Of a stretch of 64,000 nucleotides of DNA, positions 7,525 through 40,292 are shown one piece after another (position 1 is the stretch's first letter; each line of letters opens with the position of its first letter). The notes under the pieces are model-generated. The model did not search any database. It was not told where the DNA came from and saw only the letters and a program-made list of their open reading frames with translations. The translations under genes and the position numbers were made by a program. The stretch is from a virus, in IMG/VR virus record IMGVR_UViG_3300027852_000002, positions 1 to 64,000 of that record; one strand, 5' to 3'.

Positions 7525-7681
7525 TGAATATAACTGGCAGGCAGAATTTAATCACATGAATCCTGCCATACTAAAGCATGTACCATCAGTAGCCAAAGTT
7601 TATGGATTAGCTCTGGCATACCAAGATGCGTTAGATGAAATTGAGAGATTAGAACAGGAACTGACAGGGAGCAATGTCTAA
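7487..7681 (+). CDS. hypothetical protein
   Basis: 64-aa ORF with a TAATG junction to the radical-SAM gene. It overlaps the upstream ORF by 38 nt, so the start is uncertain. Confidence 0.45.
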   Translation: MKLQPKHGTIHPNEYNWQAEFNHMNPAILKHVPSVAKVYGLALAYQDALDEIERLEQELTGSNV

Positions 7682-8361
7682 TGTACATTCAAATCACAAC
7701 CCGTTGTAATATGAGTTGTGATCATTGCTCCTTTTCCTGCAATCCAACGAGCGGTGAGCACATGAATAAGCGCACTTATAAACAAGCGCTGGAATTCTGT
7801 GAAAACTACGGCTCTAGCATCACCCTTGGTGGTGGAGAACCTACCATCCACCCTCGTTTTTGGGAATTCTTCGGATTAGCATTAGGCAGTACTGCTGAAT
7901 TCTTATGGATGGCTACGAATGGCAAGCGTAAAGAAATTGCTATAGCGCTGGCGAAGCTGGCGCGGGGGAACGACTATTTTGACATCGCCCTCTCTACAGA
8001 TCGTTACCATGACCCCATCGACCCAGCTGTAATAAAAAAGTTCATAGATTATGATCTGGAACTGCGGGACGTAACAAAAGGTTGGGGTATTATTAATAAA
8101 GGTGCTGCCTTTGAGAACGGAGTAGGCGCAATAGATGCATGCACCTGTCAAGACATGCTCATCAACCCTCAAGGCGACGTGTACATGTGCGGTTGTCCTG
8201 ACAGCCTGCGCCTGGGGCAACTCGGAATAATAGACGATACTATCATTACTCGTGCTCGTACTGTTGGTGAAGATACAAACGAATGCGGAGCTGTCCTCAC
8301 TCCCGAACAAGTACAGTACATCTTGTTTAGTGTACCCATATCTGAAGAGGAGGCAGCATAA
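7681..8361 (+). CDS. radical SAM enzyme with C-terminal Cys-rich (twitch/SPASM-like) segment
   Basis: CX3CX2C motif (CNMSCDHC) at residues 9-16. GGGEPT SAM-binding motif. C-terminal CTCQDMLINPQGDVYMCGC. Confidence 0.8.
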   Translation: MYIQITTRCNMSCDHCSFSCNPTSGEHMNKRTYKQALEFCENYGSSITLGGGEPTIHPRFWEFFGLALGSTAEFLWMATNGKRKEIAIALAKLARGNDYFDIALSTDRYHDPIDPAVIKKFIDYDLELRDVTKGWGIINKGAAFENGVGAIDACTCQDMLINPQGDVYMCGCPDSLRLGQLGIIDDTIITRARTVGEDTNECGAVLTPEQVQYILFSVPISEEEAA

Positions 8362-11028: not shown

Positions 11029-11929
11029 CCTTCCGGTGGTGGAAATTTACCTTTATAGGGAAAAACCGGAACTTTCACCACTCAATTGAACAAGAAGGCA
11101 GGGCCTACTTTCTTTAGAAGGTAGGGATTTAAGGCACCTAGCCCAGTGGGTGTTTGCCGGATAAACTGGGCGCTAATTTCCCCGCTTGAGGGCGATAATA
11201 CAGGGTAACCTGTAAAAAGGAGTGAAGCCTACGCAACTCCGCCCGTAAGGGTCATTTCAAGCAAGCCGAGTCGGAGGGGCATGCCCCTCGCTTCAGTTCC
11301 TGACTGGAGCTAGATTGTGAGCGATTAAGGCACTGTCGGGCGTAATAACCAAAAGCCTGATGCCGTGAGGTATCTGTGCAAGAAAGTAAACCTTTGACGA
11401 TTAAGGGTAGGATTCCTAAGTTCGAGTCGATAGGCGAGAGCATGGTTCCAGTATGACGCGGAGGGGCTGAAAAGTCTATTCCCGTGGAATATCGTTGAGT
11501 AGCCGATAGGTTAAAGACATTCGGTGTGTGGCATTTTCTGACCGCAAGGCTAGAAAACCACCAGAAGGCGCACATCGTGGTAGGTTTACGTTTAGCTCAG
11601 TTGGTAGAGCTTCGGCATATGGAGCCGACTGTCGCAAGTTCAATTCTTGCAACGTCTTGAAAAATGCAAAGACGCCTTCTGGTACTAGGTAAAAACAGCT
11701 TAATTCTAAACGTCCCACGGGATGAATTTAGATGACTCAATGTCGCAAGCGGAGAGTCATTAATATAGAGCCGCACTATCGCTGTTAGCTGCAGAGGTGG
11801 GTAGGCAAAGTATTGAGTAGCCTAGTAGTACGTATGAACCGCCACATACTCAAAAAGGCAGTTGTGTTGTTGTACTGGAGCGAGTTTCCAGTGGATAAGT
11901 TGGCAACTGAGCGGGTAGCACCGTGAAGG
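11029..11929 (+). ncRNA. candidate large structured RNA (GOLLD/ROOL-like or novel); boundaries provisional
   Basis: No same-strand ORF across 1.1 kb. Many hairpins including GNRA loops. Nested complementary pairs at 11029-11038/11919-11929, 11480-11487/11715-11722 and 11560-11570/11673-11683. Contains a tRNA-like module. Confidence 0.45.
11586..11658 (+). tRNA. tRNA-like gene; the hand fold gives anticodon AUG, so isotype and functionality are uncertain
   Basis: 73-nt cloverleaf. D arm is GCTC-AGTTGGTA-GAGC. Anticodon stem is TCGGC/GCCGA with loop ATATGGA. Variable loop is 5 nt. T arm is GCAAG-TTCAATT-CTTGC. The acceptor stem has only 5 bp, with 1:72 and 2:71 mismatched. Confidence 0.6.
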
Positions 11930-25672: not shown

Positions 25673-26142
25673 CCCCAGAGCCCCCCCTTTCAGTTGAAAG
25701 AAAAGCTATCATTAAGCTTCTTACTAAAATAGAAGAACTTAAAATAGAGAACAAACTATTAAAAAATGAAATAGCAGAAACTTTCAATCGTCAAATCACT
25801 GATTATTTTTTAAAGTGTTTTTCAAACGCTAAAAAGATGAAATCTATAACAAGTGAAAGCTTTGTTCTTTGTGGAGTATATTGTTTGTTTAGTAAGGGAA
25901 ATCTTGTTTATATAGGGCAAAGTATTAACATATTTGCTCGAATTCAAAACCATACAGATAAAACTTTTGATACTGTTCGGTTTTATCCTTGTGAAGCTAA
26001 ACACTTAAACGAACAGGAAAGCTTCCTTATAGGTTTATTTAAACCAAAGTATAATATATCAGGAACAGGATCTACTCTTATTAATAAAGAAAACATTGGG
26101 GAAGTTTTAGTAGGGCTTTCTTATGCCCCAGATGATTTATAA
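25669..26142 (+). CDS. GIY-YIG homing endonuclease (free-standing)
   Basis: GVYCLFSKGNLVYIGQSINIFARIQNH matches the GIY...YIG...R..N motifs. The gene is strongly AT-rich compared with both flanks. Confidence 0.8.
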   Translation: MTPEPPLSVERKAIIKLLTKIEELKIENKLLKNEIAETFNRQITDYFLKCFSNAKKMKSITSESFVLCGVYCLFSKGNLVYIGQSINIFARIQNHTDKTFDTVRFYPCEAKHLNEQESFLIGLFKPKYNISGTGSTLINKENIGEVLVGLSYAPDDL

Positions 26143-26346
26143 CCTAGCCGGGGGGTCATTAGCCCGGACGGTCTTGAGCAGGTCTATTGGGCCGAGGGAG
26201 TAAAAAGCCTGCTGTCAGAGCTGATGGTCCTCCGTAATTAGTCATACCCAGTGATCTGACCGTCTGACCCACGTCACGGGCTCTAAGGAGGGAAAAAGTT
26301 ACCTAGACAGATTTCACTCATCCAGCACTACTGAGTAGAGGTGTAA
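26143..26346 (+). other. ORF-free G+C-rich structured spacer downstream of the GIY-YIG gene
   Basis: Hairpin at 26148-26152/26163-26167. A nested 7-bp helix at 26167-26173/26258-26264 encloses a 6-bp helix at 26177-26182/26208-26213. An AAGGAGGG at 26285-26292 has no start codon after it. Confidence 0.35.
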
Positions 26347-26526
26347 ATGAATATCGAAGAGCTAAAAATTAAAATTGTTAATGAAATGGATAACTGGGAT
26401 CCAGAAGCTCTTTTAGAGTGGGCTAAAGAACAACGCCATATAGATCTGGACGATCTTCAAGATGAAGATATCTACCAAATCGCTACTCAAACTTTTGGGG
26501 ATTGGGAGCAAGGTGTTTCTAAATGA
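26347..26526 (+). CDS. hypothetical acidic protein (59 aa, not in track)
   Basis: Hand translation MNIEELKIKIVNEMDNWDPEALLEWAKEQ...; GAGGTG upstream. Confidence 0.5.
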   Translation: MNIEELKIKIVNEMDNWDPEALLEWAKEQRHIDLDDLQDEDIYQIATQTFGDWEQGVSK

Positions 26527-26627
26527 ACATAAAAATACTAATCGGTCTTGTTAAACAGTTCATTGCTCTCTTTGAAGTAATAGAATATTTCCATCCTAAA
26601 TCTAAATCTAAAAGGAGAAGAAAATAA
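26523..26627 (+). CDS. hypothetical 34-aa hydrophobic/basic peptide
   Basis: ATGA junction upstream and TAATG downstream. Sequence MNIKILIGLVKQFIALFEVIEYFHPKSKSKRRRK. Confidence 0.35.
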   Translation: MNIKILIGLVKQFIALFEVIEYFHPKSKSKRRRK

Positions 26628-26845
26628 TGTTAGCGATTGTTGATATAAAAGGTGTAGATGAATCAGACTATACTGATGAAGTAGCTGAGCTATTATCAAC
26701 AATAGGGATGGGAATTTATTGGAGCGAAGAACTTCATACTAAAGCTAAAGTATTAGCCGCAACAGTTCAGGTTGAACTTGATAAAGTATATATTAGTAGA
26801 AATACAGAAACTGAAAATACTTTTCCAAGAGATTACGAGAAATGA
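26627..26845 (+). CDS. hypothetical protein, paralogue of 13536-13733
   Basis: AAGGAGAAG upstream; shares the TIGxGxxWSxE segment. Confidence 0.6.
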   Translation: MLAIVDIKGVDESDYTDEVAELLSTIGMGIYWSEELHTKAKVLAATVQVELDKVYISRNTETENTFPRDYEK

Positions 26846-26854
26846 ACGAGGTAA

Positions 26855-26992
26855 ATGATGTATAAATGCACCAGTTGCGGAAAGATGAATTGTGGTTGTT
26901 TAGGAAGATGTTCTCATTGTGGAGCTGCTAAGCTCCCTCCTAAACCTAAACCCAAAGACCAAAAACAAAAGAGGAGCAAAGATGGATACTAA
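26855..26992 (+). CDS. hypothetical zinc-ribbon peptide (45 aa, not in track)
   Basis: Hand translation MMYKCTSCGKMNCGCLGRCSHCGAAKLPPKPKPK.... Confidence 0.4.
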   Translation: MMYKCTSCGKMNCGCLGRCSHCGAAKLPPKPKPKDQKQKRSKDGY

Positions 26993-27185
26993 AAACTATC
27001 GGAAAAAAAGCATACAACCAATGCGGCCTTACATCCCAGGGGAAGATATGGCTGGTATCAGCGTATCACCTGAAGATACGCTAGAAGAAGGAGGAATGGT
27101 CGCTCACAACCCCCAAAATCCACAAGACCGTTGGTATATAGCCAAGCAATTCTTTCTCGATAACTATGAGCTAGTTGATGGCTAA
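26982..27185 (+). CDS. hypothetical protein
   Basis: Start moved to ATG 26982, with GAGGAG 5 nt upstream. Sequence MDTKNYRKKSIQPMRPYIPGED.... Confidence 0.6.
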   Translation: MDTKNYRKKSIQPMRPYIPGEDMAGISVSPEDTLEEGGMVAHNPQNPQDRWYIAKQFFLDNYELVDG

Positions 27186-27408
27186 ATTCACCTACGGATC
27201 ATTTGACTATGGTTGTCAGCAAGCTACCTGTCTTACCTTTGGTAATATCCGCCATGCTTGTAGATACATCGGACGTAGACGCAAACTAAAGATGGATATC
27301 TATTCTCGCGAACGCTTGAAAAAATGGTTTAGAACCCCAAGGATCCGTCATAAATGGAAACCAAAATGGAAACCAATTCTACAGCAGAGAACGAGATTTC
27401 GAAGATGA
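27178..27408 (+). CDS. hypothetical very basic protein
   Basis: 76-aa ORF with ATG 27178; overlaps the upstream stop. Confidence 0.4.
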   Translation: MAKFTYGSFDYGCQQATCLTFGNIRHACRYIGRRRKLKMDIYSRERLKKWFRTPRIRHKWKPKWKPILQQRTRFRR

Positions 27409-27440
27409 AGATAACAAAATGGGAGGAGAGGTAAGCAGAG

Positions 27441-27665
27441 ATGGTAATTTTACAAAACCCGAAGAAAGTTAAAGATTCGCTGGAAGCGTTTAAGCGTTCT
27501 ACTGAAAAAGAGCCTGCTTCACTGGCTAGTTCCTCATTACTTCAACCCGAAGATAGCAAGCGAGTGGCAGATGCTTTGGTGCTATCTATATCTAACATGG
27601 AAGCTGAATTTGCCGGGATGTGCGGTCACATACAATCAATAATCTGGTCGAGAGGTAAGCAGTGA
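27441..27665 (+). CDS. hypothetical protein
   Basis: GGGAGGAGAGG and the AAGCAGAGATG leader lie upstream. Confidence 0.6.
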   Translation: MVILQNPKKVKDSLEAFKRSTEKEPASLASSSLLQPEDSKRVADALVLSISNMEAEFAGMCGHIQSIIWSRGKQ

Positions 27666-27853
27666 TGGATACACCAAGACCCGACGATATTGAAAGGTTA
27701 CGCGAACGGAGAAAAGAAGAGCCAGAAAGTGATTTTGTACGGATACGTCTTGCTGCATTTGAAAACGGGAAGTGTGATCATAGCGAATACACGTTCAAAA
27801 AGTTTGGGCGTGTATGTCCATGTGGCGAATGGCTTAGTGATTTTGGCGACTAA
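27665..27853 (+). CDS. hypothetical protein
   Basis: TGATG junction; contains C...CPCGEW. Confidence 0.55.
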   Translation: MDTPRPDDIERLRERRKEEPESDFVRIRLAAFENGKCDHSEYTFKKFGRVCPCGEWLSDFGD

Positions 27854-27974
27854 CGCTAAATATAAATGCCTGCGATGTGGACATACTTACAAAGACAAAC
27901 CAGGTCCGACAGAGTGTCCTAAATGTGGCCATTTATATGTTAAGTGGGTGAATTATGAAGATGCTGGCGTATAG
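27843..27974 (+). CDS. hypothetical zinc-ribbon protein (FmdB-like YxCxxCGH...CPKCG pattern)
   Basis: YKCLRCGHTYKDKPGPTECPKCGH. Only non-ATG starts are available (TTG 27843 or GTG 27837). Confidence 0.4.
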   Translation: MATNAKYKCLRCGHTYKDKPGPTECPKCGHLYVKWVNYEDAGV

Positions 27975-28012
27975 CAGATGAAGCATAAACGCCGCATATT
28001 GAAATAGATGCA

Positions 28013-28035
28013 GAGGGGTAGGCGAGCATCCCCTC
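28013..28035. terminator. stem-loop at the convergence point of the two gene blocks
   Basis: GAGGGG-11 nt-CCCCTC. No strong U-tract on either strand. Confidence 0.35.
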
Positions 28036-28062
28036 CCTGTATTCTTGGTCACCTATCTATAC

Positions 28063-28230
28063 TTACTGTCCTGTTTGCCTAATCCCTCTTTTCTTTTTCG
28101 GTTTCTTTGGAGTACCTGAAGCAGCTTCTATAGCTGCATCAATACTACGCCCACGTCCAGATAAAGACCTAGCAGCTTTCTCAGCTAACCCACCACCTAA
28201 AGCTGGTCGTTTCAATTTCTTTCCACTCAT
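28063..28230 (-). CDS. hypothetical basic protein (55 aa, not in track)
   Basis: Hand translation MSGKKLKRPALGGGLAEKAARSLSGRGRS...KKPKKKRGIRQTGQ. AGAGGA upstream. It is the last gene of the - strand block. Confidence 0.45.
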   Translation of the reverse strand: MSGKKLKRPALGGGLAEKAARSLSGRGRSIDAAIEAASGTPKKPKKKRGIRQTGQ

Positions 28231-28278
28231 CGTATTATCCTCTTACTTTGATTTACAATTAGTTAAACCTATTATGCC

Positions 28279-28593
28279 TTATCTTACCTTTTGTTTCTCT
28301 TTAATATCTTTTAGCCGCTTCAGACTTTTCCCAGCATCACGTTTTATATGCTTCTCCAGAGAAGTTAAAGGCCGTGCAGCCTTCACAGCTTCATACTGCA
28401 AAAGCATCTGCTGCTTCTGTTCAATACGAAGATCTAATAAATAGTTATGAGTGTTACTACTAACTTGTATGATCTGTTCTTTAAGTTCCGTTTGGTTATA
28501 TCGATCTTCAGCAAAAAACAGACCTGTAGCTGTAGCAGACATTGCTGCCACAATAACTGTAGCCTTCACAAACATATCTGTTCTCTCCTTCAT
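28279..28593 (-). CDS. membrane-anchored coiled-coil protein (spanin/holin candidate)
   Basis: One N-terminal TM helix (FVKATVIVAAMSATATGLFFA) followed by heptad-like charged sequence. It lies adjacent to the hydrolases. Confidence 0.5.
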   Translation of the reverse strand: MKERTDMFVKATVIVAAMSATATGLFFAEDRYNQTELKEQIIQVSSNTHNYLLDLRIEQKQQMLLQYEAVKAARPLTSLEKHIKRDAGKSLKRLKDIKEKQKVR

Positions 28594-29153
28594 TTAATAT
28601 CCAACGCCTTTACAATCTTAGGCCCAAAGAAACCTAACTTTCTCCACTCAAACACATCACTATGACCGTTGGAAACAAACTCATAATTATCTTCCTTGTT
28701 ATAGTTGATATACCGTTCATCATCTCCTATATATCCAGAACTCCCCATCTTTCCCCAAGGATGATTTGGTAACCAACGAGCTATTTTAACCGTACTATCA
28801 GACGGTGAATGCCATACATGACAGTGATTGATCTGTGGGGCCAGCTCTGTTCTACGGTTTAGAGCAGCGTTGATATAAACCATCTGAGAAAACGGTGCGT
28901 TGTAATGAGCAGCGAGATTCAGAATTGCACATCCGTTACTATGCCCTACCCCAATAGAACCTGGCTCCACGACGCGAGATATAATTCGTGCGATACCTGC
29001 GTTACACAGACGCACGCCCAGCAGAAACTTCCACTCATAATCCAACTCCTTTACTGTATAACCAGCTCGCTCAAAATACGGGCGAAGACGGTCAGTAGTA
29101 CCATCTCCTCCATCTCTCACATTAAATCCATGTAACAAGTACACCGTTGGCAT
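28590..29153 (-). CDS. alpha/beta-fold serine hydrolase (esterase/lipase-like)
   Basis: Nucleophile elbow GHSNG, with candidate Asp (SPSDS) and His (NGHSD) in the canonical order. 187 aa. Confidence 0.7.
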   Translation of the reverse strand: MPTVYLLHGFNVRDGGDGTTDRLRPYFERAGYTVKELDYEWKFLLGVRLCNAGIARIISRVVEPGSIGVGHSNGCAILNLAAHYNAPFSQMVYINAALNRRTELAPQINHCHVWHSPSDSTVKIARWLPNHPWGKMGSSGYIGDDERYINYNKEDNYEFVSNGHSDVFEWRKLGFFGPKIVKALDIK

Positions 29154-29761
29154 TACGCTTCCCCAGTAGTTAAGTGAGCCTGCCCTAACGGTAACGCTTT
29201 TTGCACGGGCAGAGGATAAGACTTAGGCCAGCGATATCCCAGCACTCGTGAACGTGGAAACGCTTTGATGTTTACAGCGTTAGCCTGGTTGCAGCCCCAT
29301 ACCAATAAGCGACCTTGTGAATCCTTTCCTACAACCATTCCTACGTGACCTTTCCAAGAGTTCCTACTACCTCTCCAGAATATAACGATGCAGCCAACAG
29401 CTGGTTCTTCCAGCTCAACTCCCCATTTTAGATATGATCGAGCATTAGCTTTTCGTGAACTAATGATATCCGCTTCCTCTAACACTCCACCCATCCCGGC
29501 TGCGCACCACGGCGTTTCATCATCACGGATACCAGACATACGTATGGCTACCCACCAGCGAAGAATTTGTGGATTATGTCTGTGGCCTGGAATCTCTTTC
29601 AACCCAACATACTTTAACGCGATCTTTATCCAAGGATACTGAACAACAGGATCCTCTTTTACCAATCCAGTAAGCCGGTCTAACTCCTCTACCAGCTCCT
29701 GCATCAACTTCCGATCAGTCTTCTCTGCTAGTCGCGCTTTAACTCGTTCGCTAATATTCAT
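29153..29761 (-). CDS. NlpC/P60-type (TIGR02594-like) peptidoglycan hydrolase; endolysin or virion lysin candidate
   Basis: Contains ETPWCAAG, KGHVGMVVG and WGCNQ. Start moved to ATG 29761, with GAGGAG 5 nt upstream and 2 nt after the giant gene's stop. Confidence 0.75.
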   Translation of the reverse strand: MNISERVKARLAEKTDRKLMQELVEELDRLTGLVKEDPVVQYPWIKIALKYVGLKEIPGHRHNPQILRWWVAIRMSGIRDDETPWCAAGMGGVLEEADIISSRKANARSYLKWGVELEEPAVGCIVIFWRGSRNSWKGHVGMVVGKDSQGRLLVWGCNQANAVNIKAFPRSRVLGYRWPKSYPLPVQKALPLGQAHLTTGEA

Positions 29762-29763
29762 AA

Positions 29764-32700
29764 TTACTCCTCGTACAGTTCTTCCATTCTCTCCGCCCAT
29801 GGGCGTAATGTATTCTGGAATGGCAGACTATGGGACAACCATCTCTTCGTAGCTTCTTCTTTACCGCCAGCCAGTGCTCGCAGCCCTTGTATTGACCACT
29901 CAGCCGTGGGCCCTAGCACGCTCTCCATTGGGAACTTACCATGTTTCATATCCTGGTCAGCATTCACCGCTATCTCACCTACACCGAGCAGTCCAGACCG
30001 CTCGAAGGCATACCAGGCATGATCCTCTACTTCCCAACCTTCTTTATGAGGATCATCACCGAGCATGTGCTGTAGGGCGTCACGTGCCACCTCAGCCATC
30101 ATCATGCCAGGTATATACATCCCCATCATCATAGCAGGTCGCCAGTCATTCTGTTGCGCAGCCTCGTGATAACCTCTACGGATAATGGTGTCATAGAAGG
30201 AATACATGAAGCCCTTCATGTGGAATACCAACATCCACTTAGGATCTGACGCCCAGGTGGGCCTGGTTGCTGCTGTAGGCCGTAGAATGGCTCCGTCTAC
30301 CCAACGGTTGATGGCTGACTGTACACGGTCCTCACGCTCGATCCTGGCGTCCAGCTGGGTAATAGCGTCGCCTATGTCCTCTCCCTGAAACTTGCGTTCA
30401 GTCAGGACATCACGCTCAGCCAACAGATCAGCGTATTCCTGGTAACTCATTACTTTTACGTTGCCATCATCAGTAAACTGCAAGTCACCTTCACGCAGCC
30501 CCAGCTCATCCAGATACCGCGCACTGTGTTCAGTCGGGTTCTGACTATGAGACTTGAGAAACTCTGTGGCTCCGGCTACACCCATAACCCTGGTAAACCG
30601 AGTGAACTGAGTCAACATGGTTATGTTGAAAAACCACTCATTCATTCTCTGCAGACCACCAGTAAGATACGTACCGCCATACTGCCACTGCAGCGCTTCG
30701 TTGGTAGTGTGCATCTCGATAGTACCCAGAGTCTCAGCCAGCTCACGTGTAGCAGTCTTATCGTCCTTGACCTTAGCTTTAATTTCCTCCCAACCGGCTT
30801 TATACGCATGCCACGCTATCCGCATGTCGCCAGAGCGTACAGCGATGCCCAGAGGGTCTACGAGGCTGGAGAACAGAGCCGTGCTGAGCAGGCGCATGTT
30901 CTGGTATACAATCATGGCTCCCATGGCTTTCTGGAGCTTAGGATCGATGTCAGCCCCTAATACACCCATTTGAGCATCGGTAAATTTCTGCAGCTGTTCC
31001 ATCTGCGCTGGAGTGGCTCCGTGGCTCCTAGCCTTCTGGTACATCTCCTCCATCTTCTCACCATTTTTACCAAAACGCTTAACGAACTCAGCTCGTTTTA
31101 CACTCTGGTTTACATACTGATATAAAGTAGCACCCAGGTCTTTCTGTAAGAACGGTGCTAACTCATCACGGTGGTCATCCAGGAAGTTGAGTGTACGCAG
31201 CTCCTGTGCTCCCATATATGGCCGGTGCATAATCCGTTCACTCATGAAATCCAGATCGCCCTCACCATTATTACGTACAATGGCGGCATAGATGGCGTCA
31301 GCCTTACGCTGCTTCATCTCATCAGTGATCTCTACTCCTTGCATAGCAGGATTCTCCTGCTGAGTACGTTTACCAGTGGCTGGGTCATACGTTACTCGCA
31401 TACGATAGAAATCATCCGGCGCATACTGAATAATCAGCTGTTTGAACCCTTCAGGATCCTGCTGGATAGTATCGATGTCGTAATTACGTGGAAAGTAGTC
31501 TGGTCCACGCGAACCTATCTCTACACCATTACGTTTGGCGTATGCTCGTACTAACCGCATCACTTTCTGAATTGCCTGCTGTGCTCTGCGTATCTCCGGA
31601 TCTTCCGACAACTGACCTCGTTGCAAGCCATCTATAATCTGCTCAGCATAATCAGTAGAACCGTACTGATTGACGATTTCCTGAATATGTTCTTCAAACT
31701 TGCCAGACATACGCCGTACACCTTCGTGCCAGGTTTCCTTGATGCCACCGTAGCCATACACACGCTGGAACTGCTGCACAATTAATCGAACGTGTGGGTT
31801 ACCCATACCTACAAGGTTAGCGTAGCCCTGCCCCAAGATCTTCTGTACTGGGTCGCCGACGGTCTCCAGAACATTCCTCACCTGAGCCGTAGCGTACTGA
31901 AGTTTATTCTGTGTGAGTTGTTTAGGCCGGTGTAGCGTCATGGCTGGGTTGGCTTCTTTACGCAGACGCAGCTGCTGATCCTGCAGCACTTTAAGTATAT
32001 CTCCAGCCTGATCATACTTGGTTACAATCCCCAGGATCTCCCGTATACGGAACAGCAGCTTGGCAAACACACCGTTAGCCTGTGGGCCAAGTTTGATTCG
32101 CCCTTCGCGTAACAGAGCATAGCCGTAGGCCACGGCTTCATCCGGGTTATTACGTATTCGGTCCACAGCTCCAGGAGTACCTGCCAGCTCGCGTTCAAGT
32201 TGGCGCATCACAGGGAATGAAGTAAATGCTCGACTGAGTATTCCCCGCTCTTCAGCATTGAGTAGCGTGTAGAGAGCATCACGAACTGCCTGTTGGTTAC
32301 CCTGGAAGTCGTTGTTGTCCAACATGGATGCTGCCATCAGCGCCTCTTGTGGATCGACATCTTTGCCAACATGTGCCCTGACTCGTTTAGCCACTCTGTC
32401 GAGAACCTTAGTCGCCTTATCAGGAGCCTTGGTTTCTTCAGCTACCTCCTTCATCTTGGCTACAGTCTCAACGGTGGTGTTGGATTTGTTGTCCCACAGA
32501 GAGTTCAGATATCCAGCCACTTTACGATTAGGCATATACCCTTCTTTCTTCATCTGGGCGAACGCTGCTTTGATCGCATCAGCTACTTCCTTGAAGAACT
32601 TATCAACCAGTGAACGTGGGCGCTTATTCATCTCCATCCAGCGAGCGACGTTATCGGCAAACCACTCAGTGTAACCAGTCTCCGACCCAACCAGGTATTC

Positions 32701-35700
32701 CTGCTGCTCCTCAGACATCTCCTGGATATCAATATTATGCCCACGCTCCATACGGTTCATAGCGTAGAAGAAAGGTTTCTTACCTTCCACAGCTGTATGT
32801 AGGTCAGTACGTCCGTGCTTCTTCACCCAGGTCTGGTAAGCCTTGTTCATCGCCTGCTTGGTAGCGTTGTCAGCATTACGCATGAAGTGACCGAACACAG
32901 CGTGTCCAATCTCATGCGAGAGTATTTCAAACCGCTCCACAGCTGTTAGGTCAGGATGAGGATGTACAAATATGTAAGAGGTCTTCCCTTTCGTTGCATG
33001 GAATCCATGAGCCAGGTTACGCTCGATGCGATCCTTCTTATGAGGAGCGACTTTCAGCGCCTCTTCCAAAGTAAGAATCTTGATATTTACATCCAGCCCC
33101 ATCTTCTCAACAATGCGGTCAGCAAACTCCTGCATCTTCTGGTGAGTAGTTGTATCTTCAGCTTTAATCAATTCTCTGATCGTTAGAGGTTCACGAGGCT
33201 TGCGTACGCCTTTTTTTGTACCAGCTTCAGTGATACGTTTAAGCGCGTCATCAAGAGGTTCTACCTTAGCCCCAGAATCTCTCTGCTTAGCTTGTGTTCT
33301 TTTTCCTACAGGTTTCTGTCCCTCAAACCCACGCACAGCTGTTTCTGCTCCACGCATGGTCGGCCCAGCTCCTTCAGCCTGCTCTAACTTAGTTATCTCC
33401 TGACGAAGCTTACGAACTTCTTGTGCCAGCTCTTTTTTAATTTGGTGCTTTTTCAGTGGCATGATACGCCGCTTCGCATCAGGCATTAATTTCAAAAAGG
33501 CTTCATATGCAGCTTGGTTGCTCATAGAGTCAACCTTGTCACGCAGATCTTTTACCTTCTCATGACGAGAGTTCATCCGCTTCGACGCAGCTGTGTCTTC
33601 ATCTACACGCTCACCTTTATTCTTACGCTTTTCAAAACGCTCTTCCTTAATTTCACGTACAGGATCCCCGCGCTCATCACGATATATAGGGGCAAGTGGT
33701 ACAGCGTCAGGCGTACCAGTCTCCGCTCCAGGCTCCTGTTCAATCTCTGACGGATCGAAAACCTGGTAACGTGGGTTGTCAGTCAAACTCTGTACTTGGG
33801 TTGTATCGAGACTACGCTCAATTACTTCACCAGTTTCGATATCCAATACTGAGAAGAAAGGATAAACTCCAGGTGCTGTTTCCGATTGACTCGGAGTCAT
33901 GACATCAGCCAGAGTGAGTTTCGCAGATCCACTCTTATAGACTACGATGCGCTGCTTCACATTGTCAGGAATACTATCAAGATCCACCTGTATATCCTGG
34001 TGCATCCGTAGAGAGTTGAGTCCAGCAATGAGCTGATCACTTACCTGCTGTAACCGTTCTTGGGAATTCACTACACCTTCGATGTCCTGCAGTTTCTGTC
34101 CCTTCTCTTTCTGATACATCATCTGCGACAGACTCATAGCATTGATAATTACCGGCTTACCATCGCCGCGCACACCAACGATGTCATGCTCTTTGAGTTT
34201 AGGCACGCCTTTGGGCGGATCGTAGTAAGGGTTCTCGATATTATCCATGAGCCAGCCTTCTTGACTCTTACTTAAATCTGCAGCTTTACGAGGTTGGCGC
34301 AGTGGCTGCGACACCACTTTATCCTGAAACAGCTTTGTAGACAGGTCACGTGGAGAAAGTGCCACGCGCTGGCTGGAGTCGAACAACTTCCCACGAGGAT
34401 CTAATTCCAACGTAAGGAAGTGTTCGAGAAACTTCTCTGGGTTTTTTGGATCAAATAATTTATTCCAATCCAGAGTGTTATTCGCAATCTTGCGCTCCAG
34501 CTGTTGCTGGCGTTTCGGTAGCGTCTTATTAATATAGTTCTCCAGGTCAACTACGCTTTGTGAATTGTATTGACCTGCGTTACGTGAACGGTAAGCGCTA
34601 GCAGCTTCAATCAGGATATCGTTATCAGACATATCCCGACGTGCGTTCATAGATTTCAGATTAGCGCTGAGTTTATTGAGTTCTGCTTTATCTGGAGATT
34701 CAGATCGTTTCATTCTACCGATACGACCTTGTAATGTTTTACTGTTACGATACAGCGCAGTTTTATGCCCACGGATTAACGCCTGAGTTTGCTCAGCACT
34801 TAGAGCTGTAATATCAAACCCGGAACCTTCCAACACAGCACTGATATCATCTTCACGAGCCTTAGCATCACTCAAAGCTACATTAGCAGCGTTCATAGTA
34901 TCAGGGATGCTACCCAACGCCCGTTGTAACTTCGAAGATTCTTTCTCAAAAAACCCACGAGCATAGTCAGCCACAAACTCATCTTGTTGGAGTTTAGTTT
35001 CGAATGCGCCTTCAGCTTGAACACGGATCTTATCCAACAGTGTGCGTACTTCTGCGCCTTGCCCAATAGCTCCAAACTGCTCAAGACGTCTATGAATCCC
35101 ACGCACTGCGTTCTGCATCATCTCTCTAGCAACAGCTGGGCGTTTACCACGAGCAATCTGTATTGCCTCCCCAGATAATTCTGGCTTGGAATCTTCGAAA
35201 ATACGGTTCACTTCTTCAGCAAACATACCGTGGGCAAAAGCCTCATCAGAACCAGGTACAACCCCTTCTCCAACTTCCTGACTAATATCCAGCCCCATGG
35301 CCTCAGCTGCTTCAGGACTAAAATCATCAGCCATCTCCTGGATATCAACTTCAGACAGAGTTGCCTGACGTTCGATCTCTTTGTCCAGATCGCCCATTAT
35401 CTTGGTAAGTTTTGGATCTACGCCAGCAGGAGCAGGGATACCACCCAATGCACCGAATGGACCACCGGCGATAGCACCAGCAGCGAAGGCATTCATAATT
35501 GCCGACACACCTTCTTCACCAAGAATCTCCTTATTCTGATCTGCCACCTTCATAGCAGTGCGGCTGATAACTTCCTGCATCGCTTCAGTCGAACCTTCTG
35601 TTACAGACTGGATCAACGCTTCTTTGCCCATACGTTTAACAACGCCGTTCTTAATCTCTTTGAGGGCCAGTTCTTCTACTGTCTTACCGCCAAACTTATT

Positions 35701-37038
35701 GAATACACGTAAAACAGGCAGTGCTTCCAATGCACCAGCTACAACTCCACCTCCTAGACTGACCAATGCTAGTTGGCGTAAAGACAGTGACCCACCAAAA
35801 ATACTTTCAGCAGGCTCAGGAATAGTTCCACGTTTATCACGTGCCTCGATCTGCTCACGAGTTAGCGGTGTTTTTGCGTATTGCGATGTGTACCCTGGAA
35901 GTGCGCCTTCTGCTCCACGCCCCTCGCGTTCGAGCTTATACAGATGCTCTTGCCCTTCGTACCGGGGGTGTACAACTCCGCGTCCAGATTTAAGAACAAG
36001 CTCACCGATTGATTCGTCGCTATCGGATAAGTACGTATCGTCGATTTGCCTGCCGAATCGATCAACTTTACCTGACGGGGATGTCGCAAGGATTTCCCCT
36101 TCTGTGAGTTCCCGTAAGTACTGCGCTGCTTCATCTTTCCCCTCCTGTCCGACATCAGCTGTGTTAATATGAGGAACGCGGATTCTATAAGGCGCAGAAC
36201 CATCTTCTGGCTGAAAGTCGAAAGTATCTCCGTCCACCCACTTAACGGCATATCCCTTCACACCGTTACGAGCATCAGTTATGCGTTCACCACGTTGGAT
36301 AGCTTCCCAACCAGCGCGTGTGGCAGGGTCAGTAACAAGAGCAGGCATGATGCCACCTGCTTCCAGCCCCATACCAGTGCCGATAGCTGTTTTGAAAGCA
36401 GTACGACGAATACCTTTACGACTTATCTCTTGAGCGGCAGTCCCAGCTAAACGACGAGTGGCTTCACGGCCAGCTACAGGAAGAGCGCCACGTTGCGCAG
36501 CAGATAGCGCCATGTCCTTGGTCATACGCTTCGCTTGCTTCTTTGCAGTAGTAGCGATGAGTTTCTTACTAATGGAGTGCGCAGCAGTCTTAGCAACTAC
36601 TCCACCAACACCACCACCGGCGATAATCGTAGCGAGGGAAGGAAGGGCTTCGCCCATCTTGGCAGCAACGAAAGATCCAGCATCTTCAAGACTTTCAATA
36701 TCTTCAAGAGTATTGATCTCAGGAGCTACAAAAGAAGCTGCTTCAAAATACTTCTGCGCTCGTTCTGCAGATTCGATAGCAGCATCATCAGCACCAACAA
36801 GTGCTTGAGCGGCACTCTTCACTCCATGATAGGCTCCAGCAGTACCTTCTAAACCAGAACGTAACCCACGTTTAAAAGAAGACTCAGTATCAGCGCTTCT
36901 TATTGGGCCCTCACCAAACTGCTGTACTGGTTCAGTTAGAGCATAAGGGTCATAGCGAGTATCTTCAGCTTCTTCGTAAGCTTTTTGTGAAGCCGCATAC
37001 TCATCCTCAAGCTGATGCTTGAAATCACGAATACCCAC
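29764..37038 (-). CDS. giant virion/ejection-type protein (2424 aa) with an SNase-like segment and a HEIGH zincin motif
   Basis: Single uninterrupted ORF. SNase-like VDGDT...YRIRV...GQEGKDEA...VDRFGRQ at aa ~258-360. HEIGH at aa 1375. Gly-rich hydrophobic stretch near aa 131-155. GTG start. Confidence 0.85.
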   Translation of the reverse strand: MGIRDFKHQLEDEYAASQKAYEEAEDTRYDPYALTEPVQQFGEGPIRSADTESSFKRGLRSGLEGTAGAYHGVKSAAQALVGADDAAIESAERAQKYFEAASFVAPEINTLEDIESLEDAGSFVAAKMGEALPSLATIIAGGGVGGVVAKTAAHSISKKLIATTAKKQAKRMTKDMALSAAQRGALPVAGREATRRLAGTAAQEISRKGIRRTAFKTAIGTGMGLEAGGIMPALVTDPATRAGWEAIQRGERITDARNGVKGYAVKWVDGDTFDFQPEDGSAPYRIRVPHINTADVGQEGKDEAAQYLRELTEGEILATSPSGKVDRFGRQIDDTYLSDSDESIGELVLKSGRGVVHPRYEGQEHLYKLEREGRGAEGALPGYTSQYAKTPLTREQIEARDKRGTIPEPAESIFGGSLSLRQLALVSLGGGVVAGALEALPVLRVFNKFGGKTVEELALKEIKNGVVKRMGKEALIQSVTEGSTEAMQEVISRTAMKVADQNKEILGEEGVSAIMNAFAAGAIAGGPFGALGGIPAPAGVDPKLTKIMGDLDKEIERQATLSEVDIQEMADDFSPEAAEAMGLDISQEVGEGVVPGSDEAFAHGMFAEEVNRIFEDSKPELSGEAIQIARGKRPAVAREMMQNAVRGIHRRLEQFGAIGQGAEVRTLLDKIRVQAEGAFETKLQQDEFVADYARGFFEKESSKLQRALGSIPDTMNAANVALSDAKAREDDISAVLEGSGFDITALSAEQTQALIRGHKTALYRNSKTLQGRIGRMKRSESPDKAELNKLSANLKSMNARRDMSDNDILIEAASAYRSRNAGQYNSQSVVDLENYINKTLPKRQQQLERKIANNTLDWNKLFDPKNPEKFLEHFLTLELDPRGKLFDSSQRVALSPRDLSTKLFQDKVVSQPLRQPRKAADLSKSQEGWLMDNIENPYYDPPKGVPKLKEHDIVGVRGDGKPVIINAMSLSQMMYQKEKGQKLQDIEGVVNSQERLQQVSDQLIAGLNSLRMHQDIQVDLDSIPDNVKQRIVVYKSGSAKLTLADVMTPSQSETAPGVYPFFSVLDIETGEVIERSLDTTQVQSLTDNPRYQVFDPSEIEQEPGAETGTPDAVPLAPIYRDERGDPVREIKEERFEKRKNKGERVDEDTAASKRMNSRHEKVKDLRDKVDSMSNQAAYEAFLKLMPDAKRRIMPLKKHQIKKELAQEVRKLRQEITKLEQAEGAGPTMRGAETAVRGFEGQKPVGKRTQAKQRDSGAKVEPLDDALKRITEAGTKKGVRKPREPLTIRELIKAEDTTTHQKMQEFADRIVEKMGLDVNIKILTLEEALKVAPHKKDRIERNLAHGFHATKGKTSYIFVHPHPDLTAVERFEILSHEIGHAVFGHFMRNADNATKQAMNKAYQTWVKKHGRTDLHTAVEGKKPFFYAMNRMERGHNIDIQEMSEEQQEYLVGSETGYTEWFADNVARWMEMNKRPRSLVDKFFKEVADAIKAAFAQMKKEGYMPNRKVAGYLNSLWDNKSNTTVETVAKMKEVAEETKAPDKATKVLDRVAKRVRAHVGKDVDPQEALMAASMLDNNDFQGNQQAVRDALYTLLNAEERGILSRAFTSFPVMRQLERELAGTPGAVDRIRNNPDEAVAYGYALLREGRIKLGPQANGVFAKLLFRIREILGIVTKYDQAGDILKVLQDQQLRLRKEANPAMTLHRPKQLTQNKLQYATAQVRNVLETVGDPVQKILGQGYANLVGMGNPHVRLIVQQFQRVYGYGGIKETWHEGVRRMSGKFEEHIQEIVNQYGSTDYAEQIIDGLQRGQLSEDPEIRRAQQAIQKVMRLVRAYAKRNGVEIGSRGPDYFPRNYDIDTIQQDPEGFKQLIIQYAPDDFYRMRVTYDPATGKRTQQENPAMQGVEITDEMKQRKADAIYAAIVRNNGEGDLDFMSERIMHRPYMGAQELRTLNFLDDHRDELAPFLQKDLGATLYQYVNQSVKRAEFVKRFGKNGEKMEEMYQKARSHGATPAQMEQLQKFTDAQMGVLGADIDPKLQKAMGAMIVYQNMRLLSTALFSSLVDPLGIAVRSGDMRIAWHAYKAGWEEIKAKVKDDKTATRELAETLGTIEMHTTNEALQWQYGGTYLTGGLQRMNEWFFNITMLTQFTRFTRVMGVAGATEFLKSHSQNPTEHSARYLDELGLREGDLQFTDDGNVKVMSYQEYADLLAERDVLTERKFQGEDIGDAITQLDARIEREDRVQSAINRWVDGAILRPTAATRPTWASDPKWMLVFHMKGFMYSFYDTIIRRGYHEAAQQNDWRPAMMMGMYIPGMMMAEVARDALQHMLGDDPHKEGWEVEDHAWYAFERSGLLGVGEIAVNADQDMKHGKFPMESVLGPTAEWSIQGLRALAGGKEEATKRWLSHSLPFQNTLRPWAERMEELYEE

Positions 37039-38426: not shown

Positions 38427-40292
38427 TTAATAATCGTAGTTATGGTTTATGTTCGTACTATGATCCGTCGAACTAGACCCAGAAATAGCACCGCTGAGAC
38501 TTACAGCACTCAGTGCCGCCTGTGCTAGACCAGATGATACTGTAGCTCCAGATTTCAGAGCTTCCATAACCAGTTGTAATGCATTAATTGAACGCTGAAT
38601 GTTCACTTCAGCTGCCTTCATTTCCAGGTTAGCTTGGGTAGAAGCTACCTGGACCTTAATATTCTGTTCAGTGGCCTCTGCTTCTATCTGTGCTTGTTGA
38701 GCCCCTAATTCAGCAGAGAACCCTTTAATTTGAGCATCGAACGAAGTTGATTCAGCTTGAATCCTGGAAACCTCGGCTTGGGTCTGTGTACTAAACGCCT
38801 GGAGTTTACCGAGGTACATTCTAAGTGTAGCTTCATTGACCTCAATATCACTACGATTTACAGCCACCAAAGCATCCACATAAGCACGATACCCATTAAT
38901 ACGCCCATTATAAGCATTTACATCTCCTTCATATAAGCGGATCTTAGCCAGCTCTCCTTCAACCTGAGCTTGATATCCCTGGAACTCAGTAGCCTTGGCT
39001 TCAACCCTGGCCTTATACGCATCTACCCCACTGCGGTACGCTTCCAGAGCCAGTTTCTGAACATCTGCTTCAATAGCCGACGCCTGCATCTCAGTCTTAT
39101 AGACCTCCACAATGGTCTGCACAGCTGTCAGAGCGCTCTTATATGCTTCCAGCTCCTGTAGATTCATCTCTCCAATCAGTTTCTGAGCAGCCAGTTCTGA
39201 TTCGAATATCTGGAGCTTCGCCAGCTCACCCTCTATCCGAGTCTTAAAGACGCCAGCAGCAGCCTGATAAGCTGAGACTTGAGCATTATAAAGCTGAATC
39301 TTACCATTAAAAATCTGAATAGAAGCGTTCAGAATCGTAGTTTGCACTTCCAACGCCCGTTGGGCTATGGAATTAGAGTAGTTCATCAGCTGAGTTTCGC
39401 TCTGAAGCGCAGTTGTAAGAGCGAACTGGAGCTGCTGTAGAGCTCTCTCAGCTTGATTGATGTACACCTCTCTGGAAAGGGTCACATCCTTATTGATTAC
39501 TTCCTGTTCAGCTTCCTGTAATCTGGAAGCCAGTGCTCCAGGGGGTAAACTAAAGCCTCGCGCAGCGAATTCCTCAACCGCAGCTTTACGTCCCCTCTCT
39601 CCCTCAGCATGCTCACGAGAGCGTGCGCGGTCCCACAACTGCGTTTCTACAGCCTGGGGAAGCCCTGCAGTACCATTCTGGATATCATCCAGCAGTTTAT
39701 CGTTGATCTCAGTCAACATCGTACTAGAATACAGAGACTCGCTAAAGATAAGCTGTGCTTCCGGCGATACCAGTGATTCCGTCGGCATTGTATCGGTGAA
39801 AGTCGGCAGAGTAATAGTAGGGGCGTCAGGCAGCTCCAACTCACGCAATGTCGGCGTAGTGGGGATATCATACGTAGGCGACCCTGGAATAGACGGTGTA
39901 GTATAATCCGGCGCATCTCCAGGAGGAGTCACAGACAAAGGTGTCGGTGCTACCGGTAGAGTGATATCGGGGTAGAGCGAAATAAATTCCGGGATCACAG
40001 GAGGCGAAATCGCCCCTACAGGAGCCAGTGTAGGTGCGGTCGGTACAGTAGGTGCGGAGAACTCAAAGTTCTCAGGTACAGGGACATCAGGTATAACGAT
40101 ATCGCCGATTTCACCATCGGGAAACACCGTAGCAATATCTACCTGCGGGATATCAGTGATCAGATCCGGATCGATAGTAGCTTGAAGCGTAGCCAAATAA
40201 TCTTCCGCTGAACTAAAAGCACTTGTAGCGTATGATCTGGCAACAGACCATCCATCAGTAACAAGCTCACAAGGACTTGAGCAATCCGCCAT
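38427..40292 (-). CDS. structural protein with Pro/Thr-rich N-terminus and long Ala/Gln/Glu coiled coil
   Basis: 621-aa ORF with a TAATG junction to the upstream gene. Confidence 0.7.
   Translation of the reverse strand: MADCSSPCELVTDGWSVARSYATSAFSSAEDYLATLQATIDPDLITDIPQVDIATVFPDGEIGDIVIPDVPVPENFEFSAPTVPTAPTLAPVGAISPPVIPEFISLYPDITLPVAPTPLSVTPPGDAPDYTTPSIPGSPTYDIPTTPTLRELELPDAPTITLPTFTDTMPTESLVSPEAQLIFSESLYSSTMLTEINDKLLDDIQNGTAGLPQAVETQLWDRARSREHAEGERGRKAAVEEFAARGFSLPPGALASRLQEAEQEVINKDVTLSREVYINQAERALQQLQFALTTALQSETQLMNYSNSIAQRALEVQTTILNASIQIFNGKIQLYNAQVSAYQAAAGVFKTRIEGELAKLQIFESELAAQKLIGEMNLQELEAYKSALTAVQTIVEVYKTEMQASAIEADVQKLALEAYRSGVDAYKARVEAKATEFQGYQAQVEGELAKIRLYEGDVNAYNGRINGYRAYVDALVAVNRSDIEVNEATLRMYLGKLQAFSTQTQAEVSRIQAESTSFDAQIKGFSAELGAQQAQIEAEATEQNIKVQVASTQANLEMKAAEVNIQRSINALQLVMEALKSGATVSSGLAQAALSAVSLSGAISGSSSTDHSTNINHNYDY

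Follow-up and report, generated by a model that had tools for sequence, protein, structure and literature searches.

The window analysed, a 64,000-nt stretch of viral DNA (positions 1 to 64,000 of IMG/VR record IMGVR_UViG_3300027852_000002), has as its largest open reading frame an uninterrupted gene on the minus strand (29764..37038), which encodes 2424 aa from a GTG start that lies 2 nt past the upstream gene's stop and is preceded by AAGG at a distance of 10-13 nt. By our own arithmetic, the chance of 2424 codons without a stop is ~(61/64)^2424, about e^-116, and the mass of the product, estimated from its length, is ~268 kDa. The product contains no cysteine. An earlier reading made from the letters alone (the sequence-only reading) had described a single ORF, the largest of the window, followed after 2 nt by a peptidoglycan hydrolase gene. 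Both descriptions held, the 2-nt spacing provided that ATG 29761, closely preceded by GAGGAG, is the start of the downstream gene. The product of the downstream gene (202 aa from that start) matched the tail lysozyme family phrog_1259 (1e-38) and TIGR02594 (1e-35), and its match to CHAP (1.5e-5, 25.9 bits) was just under the cut-off of 26. This CHAP-type hydrolase is a likely partner enzyme of the giant protein for envelope penetration. In one relative the slot just 3' of the giant gene is occupied by a patatin phospholipase gene, and it thus holds an envelope-attacking enzyme in both.

The capsid protein is nearest to the KPP25 group (58% identity) and not to N4, so the N4-like capsid proposed in the sequence-only reading was not confirmed, while the rII genes proposed with it are present (rIIA and rIIB). 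The gene order, from a head-closure gene through several structural genes to the giant gene, is the same in KPP25. A promoter and terminator scan across the giant gene gave none above shuffled expectation, and a DNA-level search of phage records gave no match. Searches with the whole giant protein returned only chance-level, sub-threshold matches in Pfam (no polyvalent-domain model matched), nothing in PADLOC, nothing meaningful in NCBIfam, and only coiled-coil noise in phmmer against the PDB. The features of the locus are as follows.

29153..29761, minus strand: downstream gene, 202 aa if started at ATG 29761, CHAP/TIGR02594-type cell-wall hydrolase (PHROG, Pfam, NCBIfam)
29764..37038, minus strand: whole giant gene, 2424 aa plus stop, GTG start (ORF list, position of the start)
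36319..36891, minus strand: first half of the N-terminal module, aa ~50-240 (BLAST to P0013-P0026, cluster search, hydropathy)
36577..36657, minus strand: Gly-rich hydrophobic segment 1, aa 128-154 (hydropathy)
35872..36294, minus strand: thermonuclease (SNase)-like domain, aa 249-389 (PHROG, PDB profile searches, alignment of 11 inserts)
35359..35832, minus strand: second half of the N-terminal module, aa 403-560 (BLAST, cluster search, hydropathy)
35698..35805, minus strand: Gly-rich hydrophobic segment 2, aa 412-447 (hydropathy)
35425..35511, minus strand: Gly-rich hydrophobic segment 3, aa 510-538 (hydropathy)
33739..35358, minus strand: middle region, aa 561-1100 (conservation, AlphaFold)
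33187..33738, minus strand: charged K/E/R-rich linker, aa 1101-1284 (alignment, composition, AlphaFold)
32524..33186, minus strand: zincin-like, predicted metallopeptidase domain, aa 1285-1505 (phrog_87, invariant residues, AlphaFold, Peptidase_M78 in P0029)
32269..32283, minus strand: RDALY, aa 1586-1590 (alignment with P0005, P0007-P0012, P0014-P0016 and P0019)
29767..32271, minus strand: C-terminal all-helical domain, aa 1590-2424 (PHROG, KPP25 alignment, AlphaFold, Foldseek)

N-terminal module and its thermonuclease-like insert

The thermonuclease-like domain is an insert that splits the N-terminal module in two. This module is common to at least 1247 clusters at E ≤ 1e-3 (320 at ≤ 1e-10), mostly of proteins of 1.8-4.5 thousand residues, and its second half contains the conserved motif EGSTEAMQE at aa 481. 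InPase, LPD38, LPD39, ART-PolyVal, PBECR5, SNF2 with Eco57I methylase, GGDEF and Peptidase_M78 were found among the 18 module-bearing proteins scanned, and LPD38, a GH108 lysozyme and an anthrax-lethal-factor-like domain among closer relatives. The hallmark domains of polyvalent proteins found in these relatives are those described by Iyer, Burroughs, Anand, de Souza and Aravind (2017, J Bacteriol; PMC5512222), and the N-terminal module of the giant protein is thus also one of bona fide polyvalent proteins. The Gly-rich hydrophobic stretch that the sequence-only reading had placed at aa ~131-155 is real (aa 128-154, Kyte-Doolittle 19-residue mean 1.65), and two further segments were found in the second half of the module (means of 1.77 for segment 2 and 1.38 for segment 3). 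All three are of moderate hydrophobicity only, and their model confidence was low.

The V.DGDT...RIR...FGR pattern at aa 258-360, suspected earlier to be SNase-like, proved to be a genuine thermonuclease-family match. The domain matched a PHROG endonuclease family (2.6e-5), its 4-sequence profile produced a PDB match at 3.6e-5, and its 11-sequence profile matched PDB thermonuclease chains with an E value of 8.6e-13; all but two of the 120 database matches listed for the latter profile carry PF00565, with E values down to 7e-16. The Pfam model PF00565 gave no match on the giant protein even at E ≤ 1. The active-site equivalents are D271 (D21), R287 (R35), N292 (D40), T293 (T41), D295 (E43) and R329 (R87). 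The segment thus reads NTAD in place of D-T-P-E, with D21 and T41 kept and D40 and E43 replaced by Asn and Asp, and the canonical Ca2+ ligand/general base set (D21, D40, T41, E43) is incomplete. The variant site D271/R287/N292-x-A294-D295/R329 is nevertheless conserved across the 11 relatives, down to about 30% identity: the phosphate-binding Arg is kept (R287 invariant, R329 nearly invariant), and the changed residues N292 and D295 are invariant or nearly so. A minority of stand-alone thermonuclease-family members likewise have Asn in place of D40 and Asp in place of E43. The altered site was therefore read correctly, and the accompanying worry that the domain may be inactive is weakened, because the changed residues are conserved in the insert family and occur in stand-alone thermonucleases. 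Judged by these alignments, aa 249-389 are a true staphylococcal-nuclease homologue, for which nuclease activity is predicted at most; the domain retains the D21, R35 and R87 equivalents of the PF00565 family, and differs from it in the two substitutions and in being embedded in a 2424-aa putative virion protein.

Zincin-like domain and middle region

The HEIGH sequence lies at aa 1375-1379 (32902..32916), exactly where the sequence-only reading had placed it, and its interpretation as a zinc-metallopeptidase signature was upheld, as it belongs to a real module. By our own arithmetic from composition, chance would produce about 0.07 HExxH motifs in a protein of this length; 28 of 28 relatives have one. 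H1375, E1376, H1379 and the downstream E1458, the putative third zinc ligand within EWFAD (EWxAD in the alignment), are invariant among nine aligned sequences. In the AlphaFold model (pLDDT 89-97) the domain consists of a helix, three strands, the HExxH helix and the Glu helix, which is the same order as in the MPTase core (N-terminal helix, three-stranded sheet and two C-terminal helices), and both the HExxH on a helix and the Glu on a following conserved helix are present. The domain matched phrog_87, annotated as metallo-protease (4e-4), and in the relative P0029 Peptidase_M78 passes its cut-off. Pfam peptidase models gave no match on the giant protein, and neither Foldseek nor a PDB profile search gave a significant match for the domain: the best Foldseek match of the whole 1200-residue model was the metalloprotease MATCAP with an E value of only 1.1, and the profile reached only an M3B peptidase at 0.03. 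Residues 1285-1505 thus look like a zincin-like domain with predicted protease activity. A metzincin reading of HEIGHAVFGH was dropped for lack of conservation of the third His, which two of the closest relatives replace by Tyr.

A further, decayed zincin site is indicated 210 residues downstream of the present one. In the KPP25-type relatives (P0005, P0007-P0012, P0014-P0016 and P0019), which have no DGDT/SNase insert, an intact HExxH directly precedes the C-terminal domain, whereas the giant protein reads RDALY at this position. By this alignment, RDALY is a decayed remnant of that HExxH, and the present zincin-like domain is a different zincin. For the six KPP25-type relatives found by both BLAST and the RDALY alignment, only the C-terminal third aligns.

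The middle region (aa 561-1100), modelled as long helices with a small alpha/beta domain at aa ~940-1050 (model residues 550-660, pLDDT ~90), is conserved in none but the three closest relatives, and gave no structural match in Foldseek and no sequence match; a profile of aa 600-1100 found nothing in the PDB. The linker that follows varies in length among relatives and was poorly modelled. Foldseek of the model of aa 390-1589 against the PDB, a multi-domain model with a mean pLDDT of 62.8, gave no significant match.

These modules allow a purely structural alternative to be weighed, in which the giant protein would be a core scaffold, plug or length-determining protein of the virion and its enzyme-like modules would be catalytically dead units for folding or binding. 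The two altered SNase residues, the Pfam SNase and peptidase models below threshold on the giant protein, and RDALY, a clearly dead second zincin remnant by which module decay occurs in the lineage, are consistent with it. However, the altered SNase residues are held across the inserts along with D271, R287 and R329, the same substitutions are found in stand-alone proteins of the thermonuclease family, and all four catalytic or ligand residues of the zincin are invariant. In addition, other enzymes are swapped in at equivalent places in relatives, which points to selection for activity. A catalytically dead protein is therefore rather improbable.

C-terminal helical body

The C-terminal domain (aa 1590-2424) is the part conserved family-wide. 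It matched phrog_30152, a virion structural protein family (1e-89), and aligned with KPP25 ORF088, labelled virion structural protein in its record, with 28% identity over 817 aa (E 5e-79). KPP25 ORF088 and the phiR18 'virion structural protein' (Kochitakasuvirus) share with the giant protein these homologous C-terminal 817 aa, the gene order and a related capsid, but the alignment with ORF088 is confined to the C-terminal third. The AlphaFold model of the domain (pLDDT 77.6, pTM 0.74) gave 91 Foldseek matches at E ≤ 1e-3 among viral models, including the KPP25 protein (4e-35, TM 0.74) and proteins annotated as 'large polyvalent protein associated domain'. Many further matches carry an annotation as internal virion or core protein, among them those of Vibrio VP2 (6e-11), PAO1_Ab05, RSB3, LKA1, LIMElight and Bordetella BB8, and 'internal virion protein D'; for the annotated internal virion proteins, the predicted model gave E values of 1e-8 to 1e-11 and a TM of about 0.5. 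The best PDB match was 9jyy_I of the mature T7 core, a chain of 1223 residues that we take to be gp16, judged by chain length (prob 0.99, E 1.8e-3), which superposes poorly overall (TM 0.20/0.15, rmsd 28.9). Long helical proteins can yield spurious structural matches.

No sequence relationship to gp16 was detected. Comparison with T7 gp16 by hhalign gave a probability of 0.2% (gp16 alone and a 5-member gp16 alignment), and for this reason membership in the gp16 sequence family is not claimed. BLAST and phmmer of N4 gp50, T7 gp16 and T7 gp15 against 174 family proteins gave nothing. A profile of the C-terminal domain against the PDB found only apolipoprotein and designed helical proteins, counted as noise. 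The likeness of aa 1590-2424 to gp16 is thus a match of predicted structure, without sequence similarity. The giant protein resembles T7 gp16 and the podovirus internal core proteins in the predicted structural class of its large helical body, in the position of its gene late in the tail and internal-protein block, and in its association with a cell-wall-degrading activity. Unlike gp16, it is almost twice as long, has additional nuclease-like and zincin modules, and has no fused N-terminal lytic transglycosylase (Pfam, PHROG), the separate CHAP hydrolase being encoded just downstream.

The absence of gp16 sequence similarity and the low global TM-score to the solved T7 core would also fit a polyvalent effector carried in the head, outside the DNA channel, like the Dar proteins of phage P1, the resemblance to gp16 then reflecting a packaging domain of a general helical type; in myoviruses such as P1, polyvalent proteins are carried as cargo inside the head (PMC5512222). 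This location is unlikely, as the structural matches are specific to podovirus internal core proteins (TM about 0.5 over >800 residues), the gene occupies the position of gp16 in podovirus structural modules, and the structural module contains no other gp16-sized candidate. A divergent RNA polymerase carried in the virion, of the kind of N4 gp50 or gp62 of crAss-like phages, which would transcribe early genes once injected and which the sequence-only reading had wished to see considered, is suggested by the giant size, the gene closing the late structural operon as gp50 does, the zincin ahead of a large C-terminal region as in gp50 (PMC5512222), and the lack of a phage RNA polymerase gene among the 39 window ORFs scanned against PHROGs, but it is largely refuted and very improbable: there is no similarity to N4 gp50 anywhere (BLASTP; hhalign with the C-terminal and N-terminal profiles), no PHROG or Pfam match to a polymerase and no polymerase module, none of the Foldseek matches listed for aa 1590-2424 and aa 390-1589 is a polymerase, the capsid is KPP25-like, and the assigned domains leave only ~540 poorly conserved residues (aa 561-1100) where N4 mini-vRNAP needs about 1100 (PMC5512222). 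Polymerase motifs suspected by eye within the C-terminal body (K2037...Y2045, FYDT) were dropped, with Y2045 being Phe in the closest relatives and the fold matching core proteins. The family protein P0136, with 3498 aa close to N4 gp50 in size, was also found not to be an N4-like polymerase (BLAST, phmmer).

Relation to polyvalent proteins and proposed role at infection

Taken together, these observations make it probable that the gene encodes the large protein of the virion interior (core/ejection protein) in a podovirus distantly related to KPP25, on the plan of a phage-type polyvalent protein. This kind of protein is already known, and the giant protein joins it as a further member. In common with phage-type polyvalent proteins (PMC5512222), it is one very long polypeptide encoded in a phage structural module, joins other effector-type domains (here SNase-like, within 2424 aa) to a zincin-like metallopeptidase hub, and shares its N-terminal module and C-terminal body with bearers of LPD38/39, ART-PolyVal, PBECR5, InPase and methylase-helicase. 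It differs from them in the lack of any Pfam polyvalent-domain match of its own, in having the SNase-like domain inserted within the N-terminal module and not placed behind it, and in its staphylococcal-nuclease-type cargo, which has no mention in the main text of the 2017 survey (PMC5512222). The ejected multi-enzyme 'ejectosome' protein put forward in the sequence-only reading thus stands as the best-supported reading, in view of the C-terminal structure, the shared N-terminal module, the KPP25 homologue and gene order, and the real modules; we infer its packaging and ejection, as well as both enzyme activities.

As an internal core protein, a few copies would be packed in the capsid on the portal axis, by analogy with T7 gp16, N4 gp50 and polyvalent proteins. 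At infection the protein would be unfolded and ejected via the tail, ahead of or with the DNA, and its C-terminal body and hydrophobic segments may help to build or anchor an inner-membrane channel. In T7, opening of the cell wall is done by the transglycosylase fused to gp16; here, the separately encoded CHAP hydrolase would open it. In N4 gp50 the N-terminal region serves injection and the C-terminal region encapsidation (PMC5512222). The zincin might cut the giant protein into working pieces or attack host proteins. The module expected for a protease delivered into the cell, as proposed earlier, is present, although processing of the giant protein itself is as likely a task for it as attack on host proteins (Iyer et al. 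2017, PMC5512222). The nuclease-like domain could act on nucleic acid, by binding or cutting, either where the DNA enters or in the cytoplasm.

These results provide a testable domain map for a putative 268-kDa virion protein otherwise without annotation, and remove a mis-annotation, as a giant gene ending a late operon need not encode an N4-like virion RNA polymerase. They also join two literatures, that of podovirus ejection proteins such as T7 gp16 and that of the computationally defined polyvalent proteins, since a body of the gp16 class here bears the N-terminal module common to polyvalent proteins. Should the nuclease-like and zincin modules prove active, they would be injected enzymes of the first seconds of infection, and hence candidates for host takeover or anti-defence. 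We propose tentatively, and regard as doubtful at present, that the polyvalent-protein group of at least 1247 clusters is the gp16-equivalent subunit of the ejection channel, with enzymes carried in the conduit itself, and that in the present clade an SNase with a re-tuned N-x-A-D active site lies between membrane-inserting half-modules and the ancestral junction zincin (now RDALY) has been replaced by a second, unrelated copy. If so, the nuclease would be set at a defined side of the inner membrane just as the DNA enters, and might there remove, for instance, nucleic acid of the host or defence signals based on nucleotides.

Genome context and the giant gene

The window carries two blocks of genes in opposite orientations, which include the following genes and features.

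Plus-strand genes (+): primase, exonucleases, helicase, family-A DNA polymerase, thymidylate synthase, rIIA and rIIB
2616..3158 (+): HNH endonuclease, directly 3' of the primase gene
7681..8361 (+): radical-SAM-like protein, amid the replication genes
11586..11658 (+): tRNA-His with the unusual anticodon ATG, the single tRNA called by ARAGORN
Minus-strand genes (-): portal, major capsid protein, head-closure protein, several unannotated structural-size proteins, the giant gene and the hydrolase
62980..63447 (-): phosphoheptose-isomerase-like gene, adjoining the portal gene

The rII genes named in the sequence-only reading were both found on the plus strand, but the capsid, which it had called N4-like, instead resembled that of the Pseudomonas phage KPP25 group (genus Kochitakasuvirus), at 58% identity. 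Genes from the head-closure gene through the giant gene are ordered as in KPP25. As no GenBank phage searched at the DNA level matched the window, the phage was regarded as a distant, uncultured relative of KPP25. A PHROGs scan of 39 ORFs in the window revealed no RNA polymerase gene; the 70-kb contig extends about 6 kb beyond the window. The two gene blocks converge on 26142..28279, about 2 kb free of ORFs of at least 100 aa, around which GC skew was high and positive (+0.126 over 26001-28000). In a 621-aa protein (38427..40292 (-), phrog_10969), aa 209-353 matched PDB chain 26la_X (E 5.7e-5). This chain, also present in 44nx, is named 'Structural protein' and has 318 residues; as KPP25 ORF003 likewise has 318 aa, the virion of a related phage may already have a solved structure.

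The giant gene (29764..37038 (-)) is the largest ORF in the window, with 2424 codons without interruption, and by our own arithmetic the chance of a stop-free run of this length is about e^-116. It starts with GTG 2 bases past the stop codon of the upstream gene, AAGG is located 10-13 nt 5' of the GTG, and the first 126 codons contain no in-frame ATG. The 2424-residue product contains no cysteine. A mechanical ORF list places the downstream gene at 29153..29800 (-), beginning at ATG 29800 with a 37-nt overlap with the giant gene; its start is most plausibly the in-frame ATG 29761, 2 nt past the giant gene's stop codon, with GAGGAG just 5' of it. The product is a CHAP/TIGR02594-type hydrolase, in agreement with the peptidoglycan hydrolase proposed for this position. 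In L005, the contig carrying the close relative P0003, the giant gene is directly followed by a patatin-like phospholipase gene (L005:16720-17607) and not by a CHAP hydrolase gene, and the slot after the giant gene thus seems to hold interchangeable envelope-attacking enzymes.

N-terminal module, nuclease-like insert and zincins

A search of 5.8 billion proteins yielded only 27 relatives of the giant protein. Three close relatives (39-50% identity, 2240-2271 aa) align end to end. Most of the remaining relatives share the C-terminal third, many also have two short blocks near the N-terminus (aa ~50-240 and ~425-560), and the region around HEIGH is present in some; an HExxH motif is present in 28/28 proteins, the giant protein included. 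When aa 1-600 were searched exhaustively as a profile, 1247 clusters at E<=1e-3 (320 at <=1e-10) contained the two N-terminal blocks, which usually adjoin each other. Among the matches listed, most were 1800-4500 residues long and the others were shorter, apparently partial. Eighteen proteins with these blocks, compared with Pfam, carried InPase, LPD38, LPD39, ART-PolyVal, PBECR5, GGDEF and Peptidase_M78 domains, as well as an SNF2 helicase combined with an Eco57I-type methylase. Closer relatives carried LPD38, DUF7178, GH108 lysozyme with a peptidoglycan-binding domain, and an anthrax-lethal-factor-like domain.

The staphylococcal nuclease (SNase)-like pattern of the sequence-only reading lies exactly where it was placed (aa 258-360) and marks a true homologue: a profile built from the four closest sequences matched staphylococcal nuclease chains at 3.6e-5. 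The insert occurs in 11 cluster representatives, every time between the two N-terminal blocks, and the 11-insert profile matched PDB thermonuclease at 8.6e-13 and stand-alone PF00565 proteins in a large database at down to 7e-16. In SNase numbering, the giant protein retains D21, R35 and R87, while D40 is replaced by Asn and E43 by Asp. Across the 11 inserts (~30% identity), D271, R287 and A294-D295 are invariant, and N292 and R329 nearly so. Asn occupies position 40 in 25 of the 120 stand-alone relatives listed, and Asp position 43 in 8. The altered segment noted earlier is real. Because the changed residues are kept, or nearly so, across the inserts and occur in stand-alone relatives, the site looks like a maintained variant and not like decay; the domain may cut nucleic acid or only bind it.

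The HEIGH motif was likewise located precisely (32902..32916, aa 1375-1379), and its reading as a zinc-metallopeptidase signature was supported: H1375, E1376, H1379 and E1458 (motif EWxAD) are invariant in nine aligned sequences. The AlphaFold model of aa 390-1589 was poor overall (pLDDT 62.8) but confident across the putative zincin domain (89-97), whose predicted order of helix, three strands, HExxH helix and Glu helix resembles that given for the polyvalent-protein metallopeptidase core (PMC5512222). Among curated models, phrog_87 matched weakly at 4e-4 and Peptidase_M78 exceeded its cut-off only in the relative P0029; neither the PDB search nor Foldseek gave a significant match to the zincin. 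KPP25-type relatives retain an intact HExxH ~20 residues ahead of the C-terminal domain. The equivalent site reads RDALY, WAFHN or VAYHT in the giant protein (RDALY, aa 1586-1590, 32269..32283 (-)) and its nearest relatives, with the downstream PEER helix decayed as well. The clade is thus predicted to have a dead ancestral zincin and, ~210 residues upstream, a second zincin of another subtype that is live.

The Gly-rich hydrophobic stretch proved genuine (aa 128-154, Kyte-Doolittle 19-residue mean 1.65), and two further segments were found at aa 412-447 (1.77) and aa 510-538 (1.38). The region of aa 561-1100, whose conservation is limited to the three closest relatives, consists of long helices and a small, confidently modelled alpha/beta domain (aa ~940-1050), and gave no match in Foldseek or PDB profile searches. 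It is followed by a variable, charged K/E-rich linker (aa 1101-1284).

C-terminal body and the polymerase question

The C-terminal third matched phrog_30152 'virion structural protein' (aa 1601-2359, 1e-89) and KPP25 ORF088, an annotated virion structural protein (aa 1601-2417, 28% identity). Its AlphaFold model, built from an 18-sequence alignment, was nearly all helical and reasonably confident (pLDDT 77.6, pTM 0.74). Foldseek against predicted viral structures gave 91 matches at E<=1e-3. At the top (E ~1e-35, TM 0.74-0.77) stood the KPP25 protein together with 'large polyvalent protein associated domain' proteins; below them came many proteins of T7-like and phiKMV-like podoviruses with an internal virion or internal core annotation (E 1e-8 to 1e-11, TM ~0.5 across >800 columns). 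In some matches, an SLT transglycosylase, matrixin or RadC/JAB domain precedes the same C-terminal body. The only notable solved structure was the mature T7 core chain I, presumably gp16 given its length of 1223 residues (probability 0.99, E 1.8e-3, global TM just 0.20). Membership in the gp16 sequence family is not claimed, as the C-terminal third showed no sequence similarity to T7 gp16 even in profile-versus-profile comparison. The modelled fold places the domain in one structural class with the internal core proteins of podoviruses, and it very probably has their function.

The suggestion of a divergent virion RNA polymerase found no support: the giant protein is not similar in sequence to N4 gp50, no polymerase fold was among the Foldseek results for aa 390-2424, and the unassigned sequence is too short for an N4 or T7 type.

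Proposed role and assignment

While the domain map and homologies are computed, the mechanism is modelled on T7 gp16, N4 gp50 and polyvalent proteins. The N4 gp50 and polyvalent-protein side comes from PMC5512222, in which Iyer et al. (2017) described giant phage and plasmid proteins that join a zincin-like metallopeptidase hub to many effector domains, and proposed that they enter the host together with DNA; the domains seen in relatives of the giant protein are domains of such polyvalent proteins. A few copies of the giant protein would be packed inside the head on the portal axis and ejected via the tail upon infection. The C-terminal body and hydrophobic segments may contribute to an inner-membrane channel, while the CHAP hydrolase of the neighbouring gene would open the wall. 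The zincin may process the giant protein or attack host targets, and the nuclease-like domain may act on nucleic acid at the entry site or just inside. An ejected multi-enzyme protein, as first envisaged, is the probable reading; the SNase homologue and zincin-like domain were found together with a core-protein-like body.

Taken together, the giant protein is most likely a phage-type polyvalent protein, previously unannotated and built on the internal-core scaffold of a podovirus, a kind already known. In their main text, Iyer et al. (2017; PMC5512222) make no mention of SNase-type cargo or its placement inside the N-terminal module; both leave the category of the protein unchanged, as does the relic zincin, a neat evolutionary detail.
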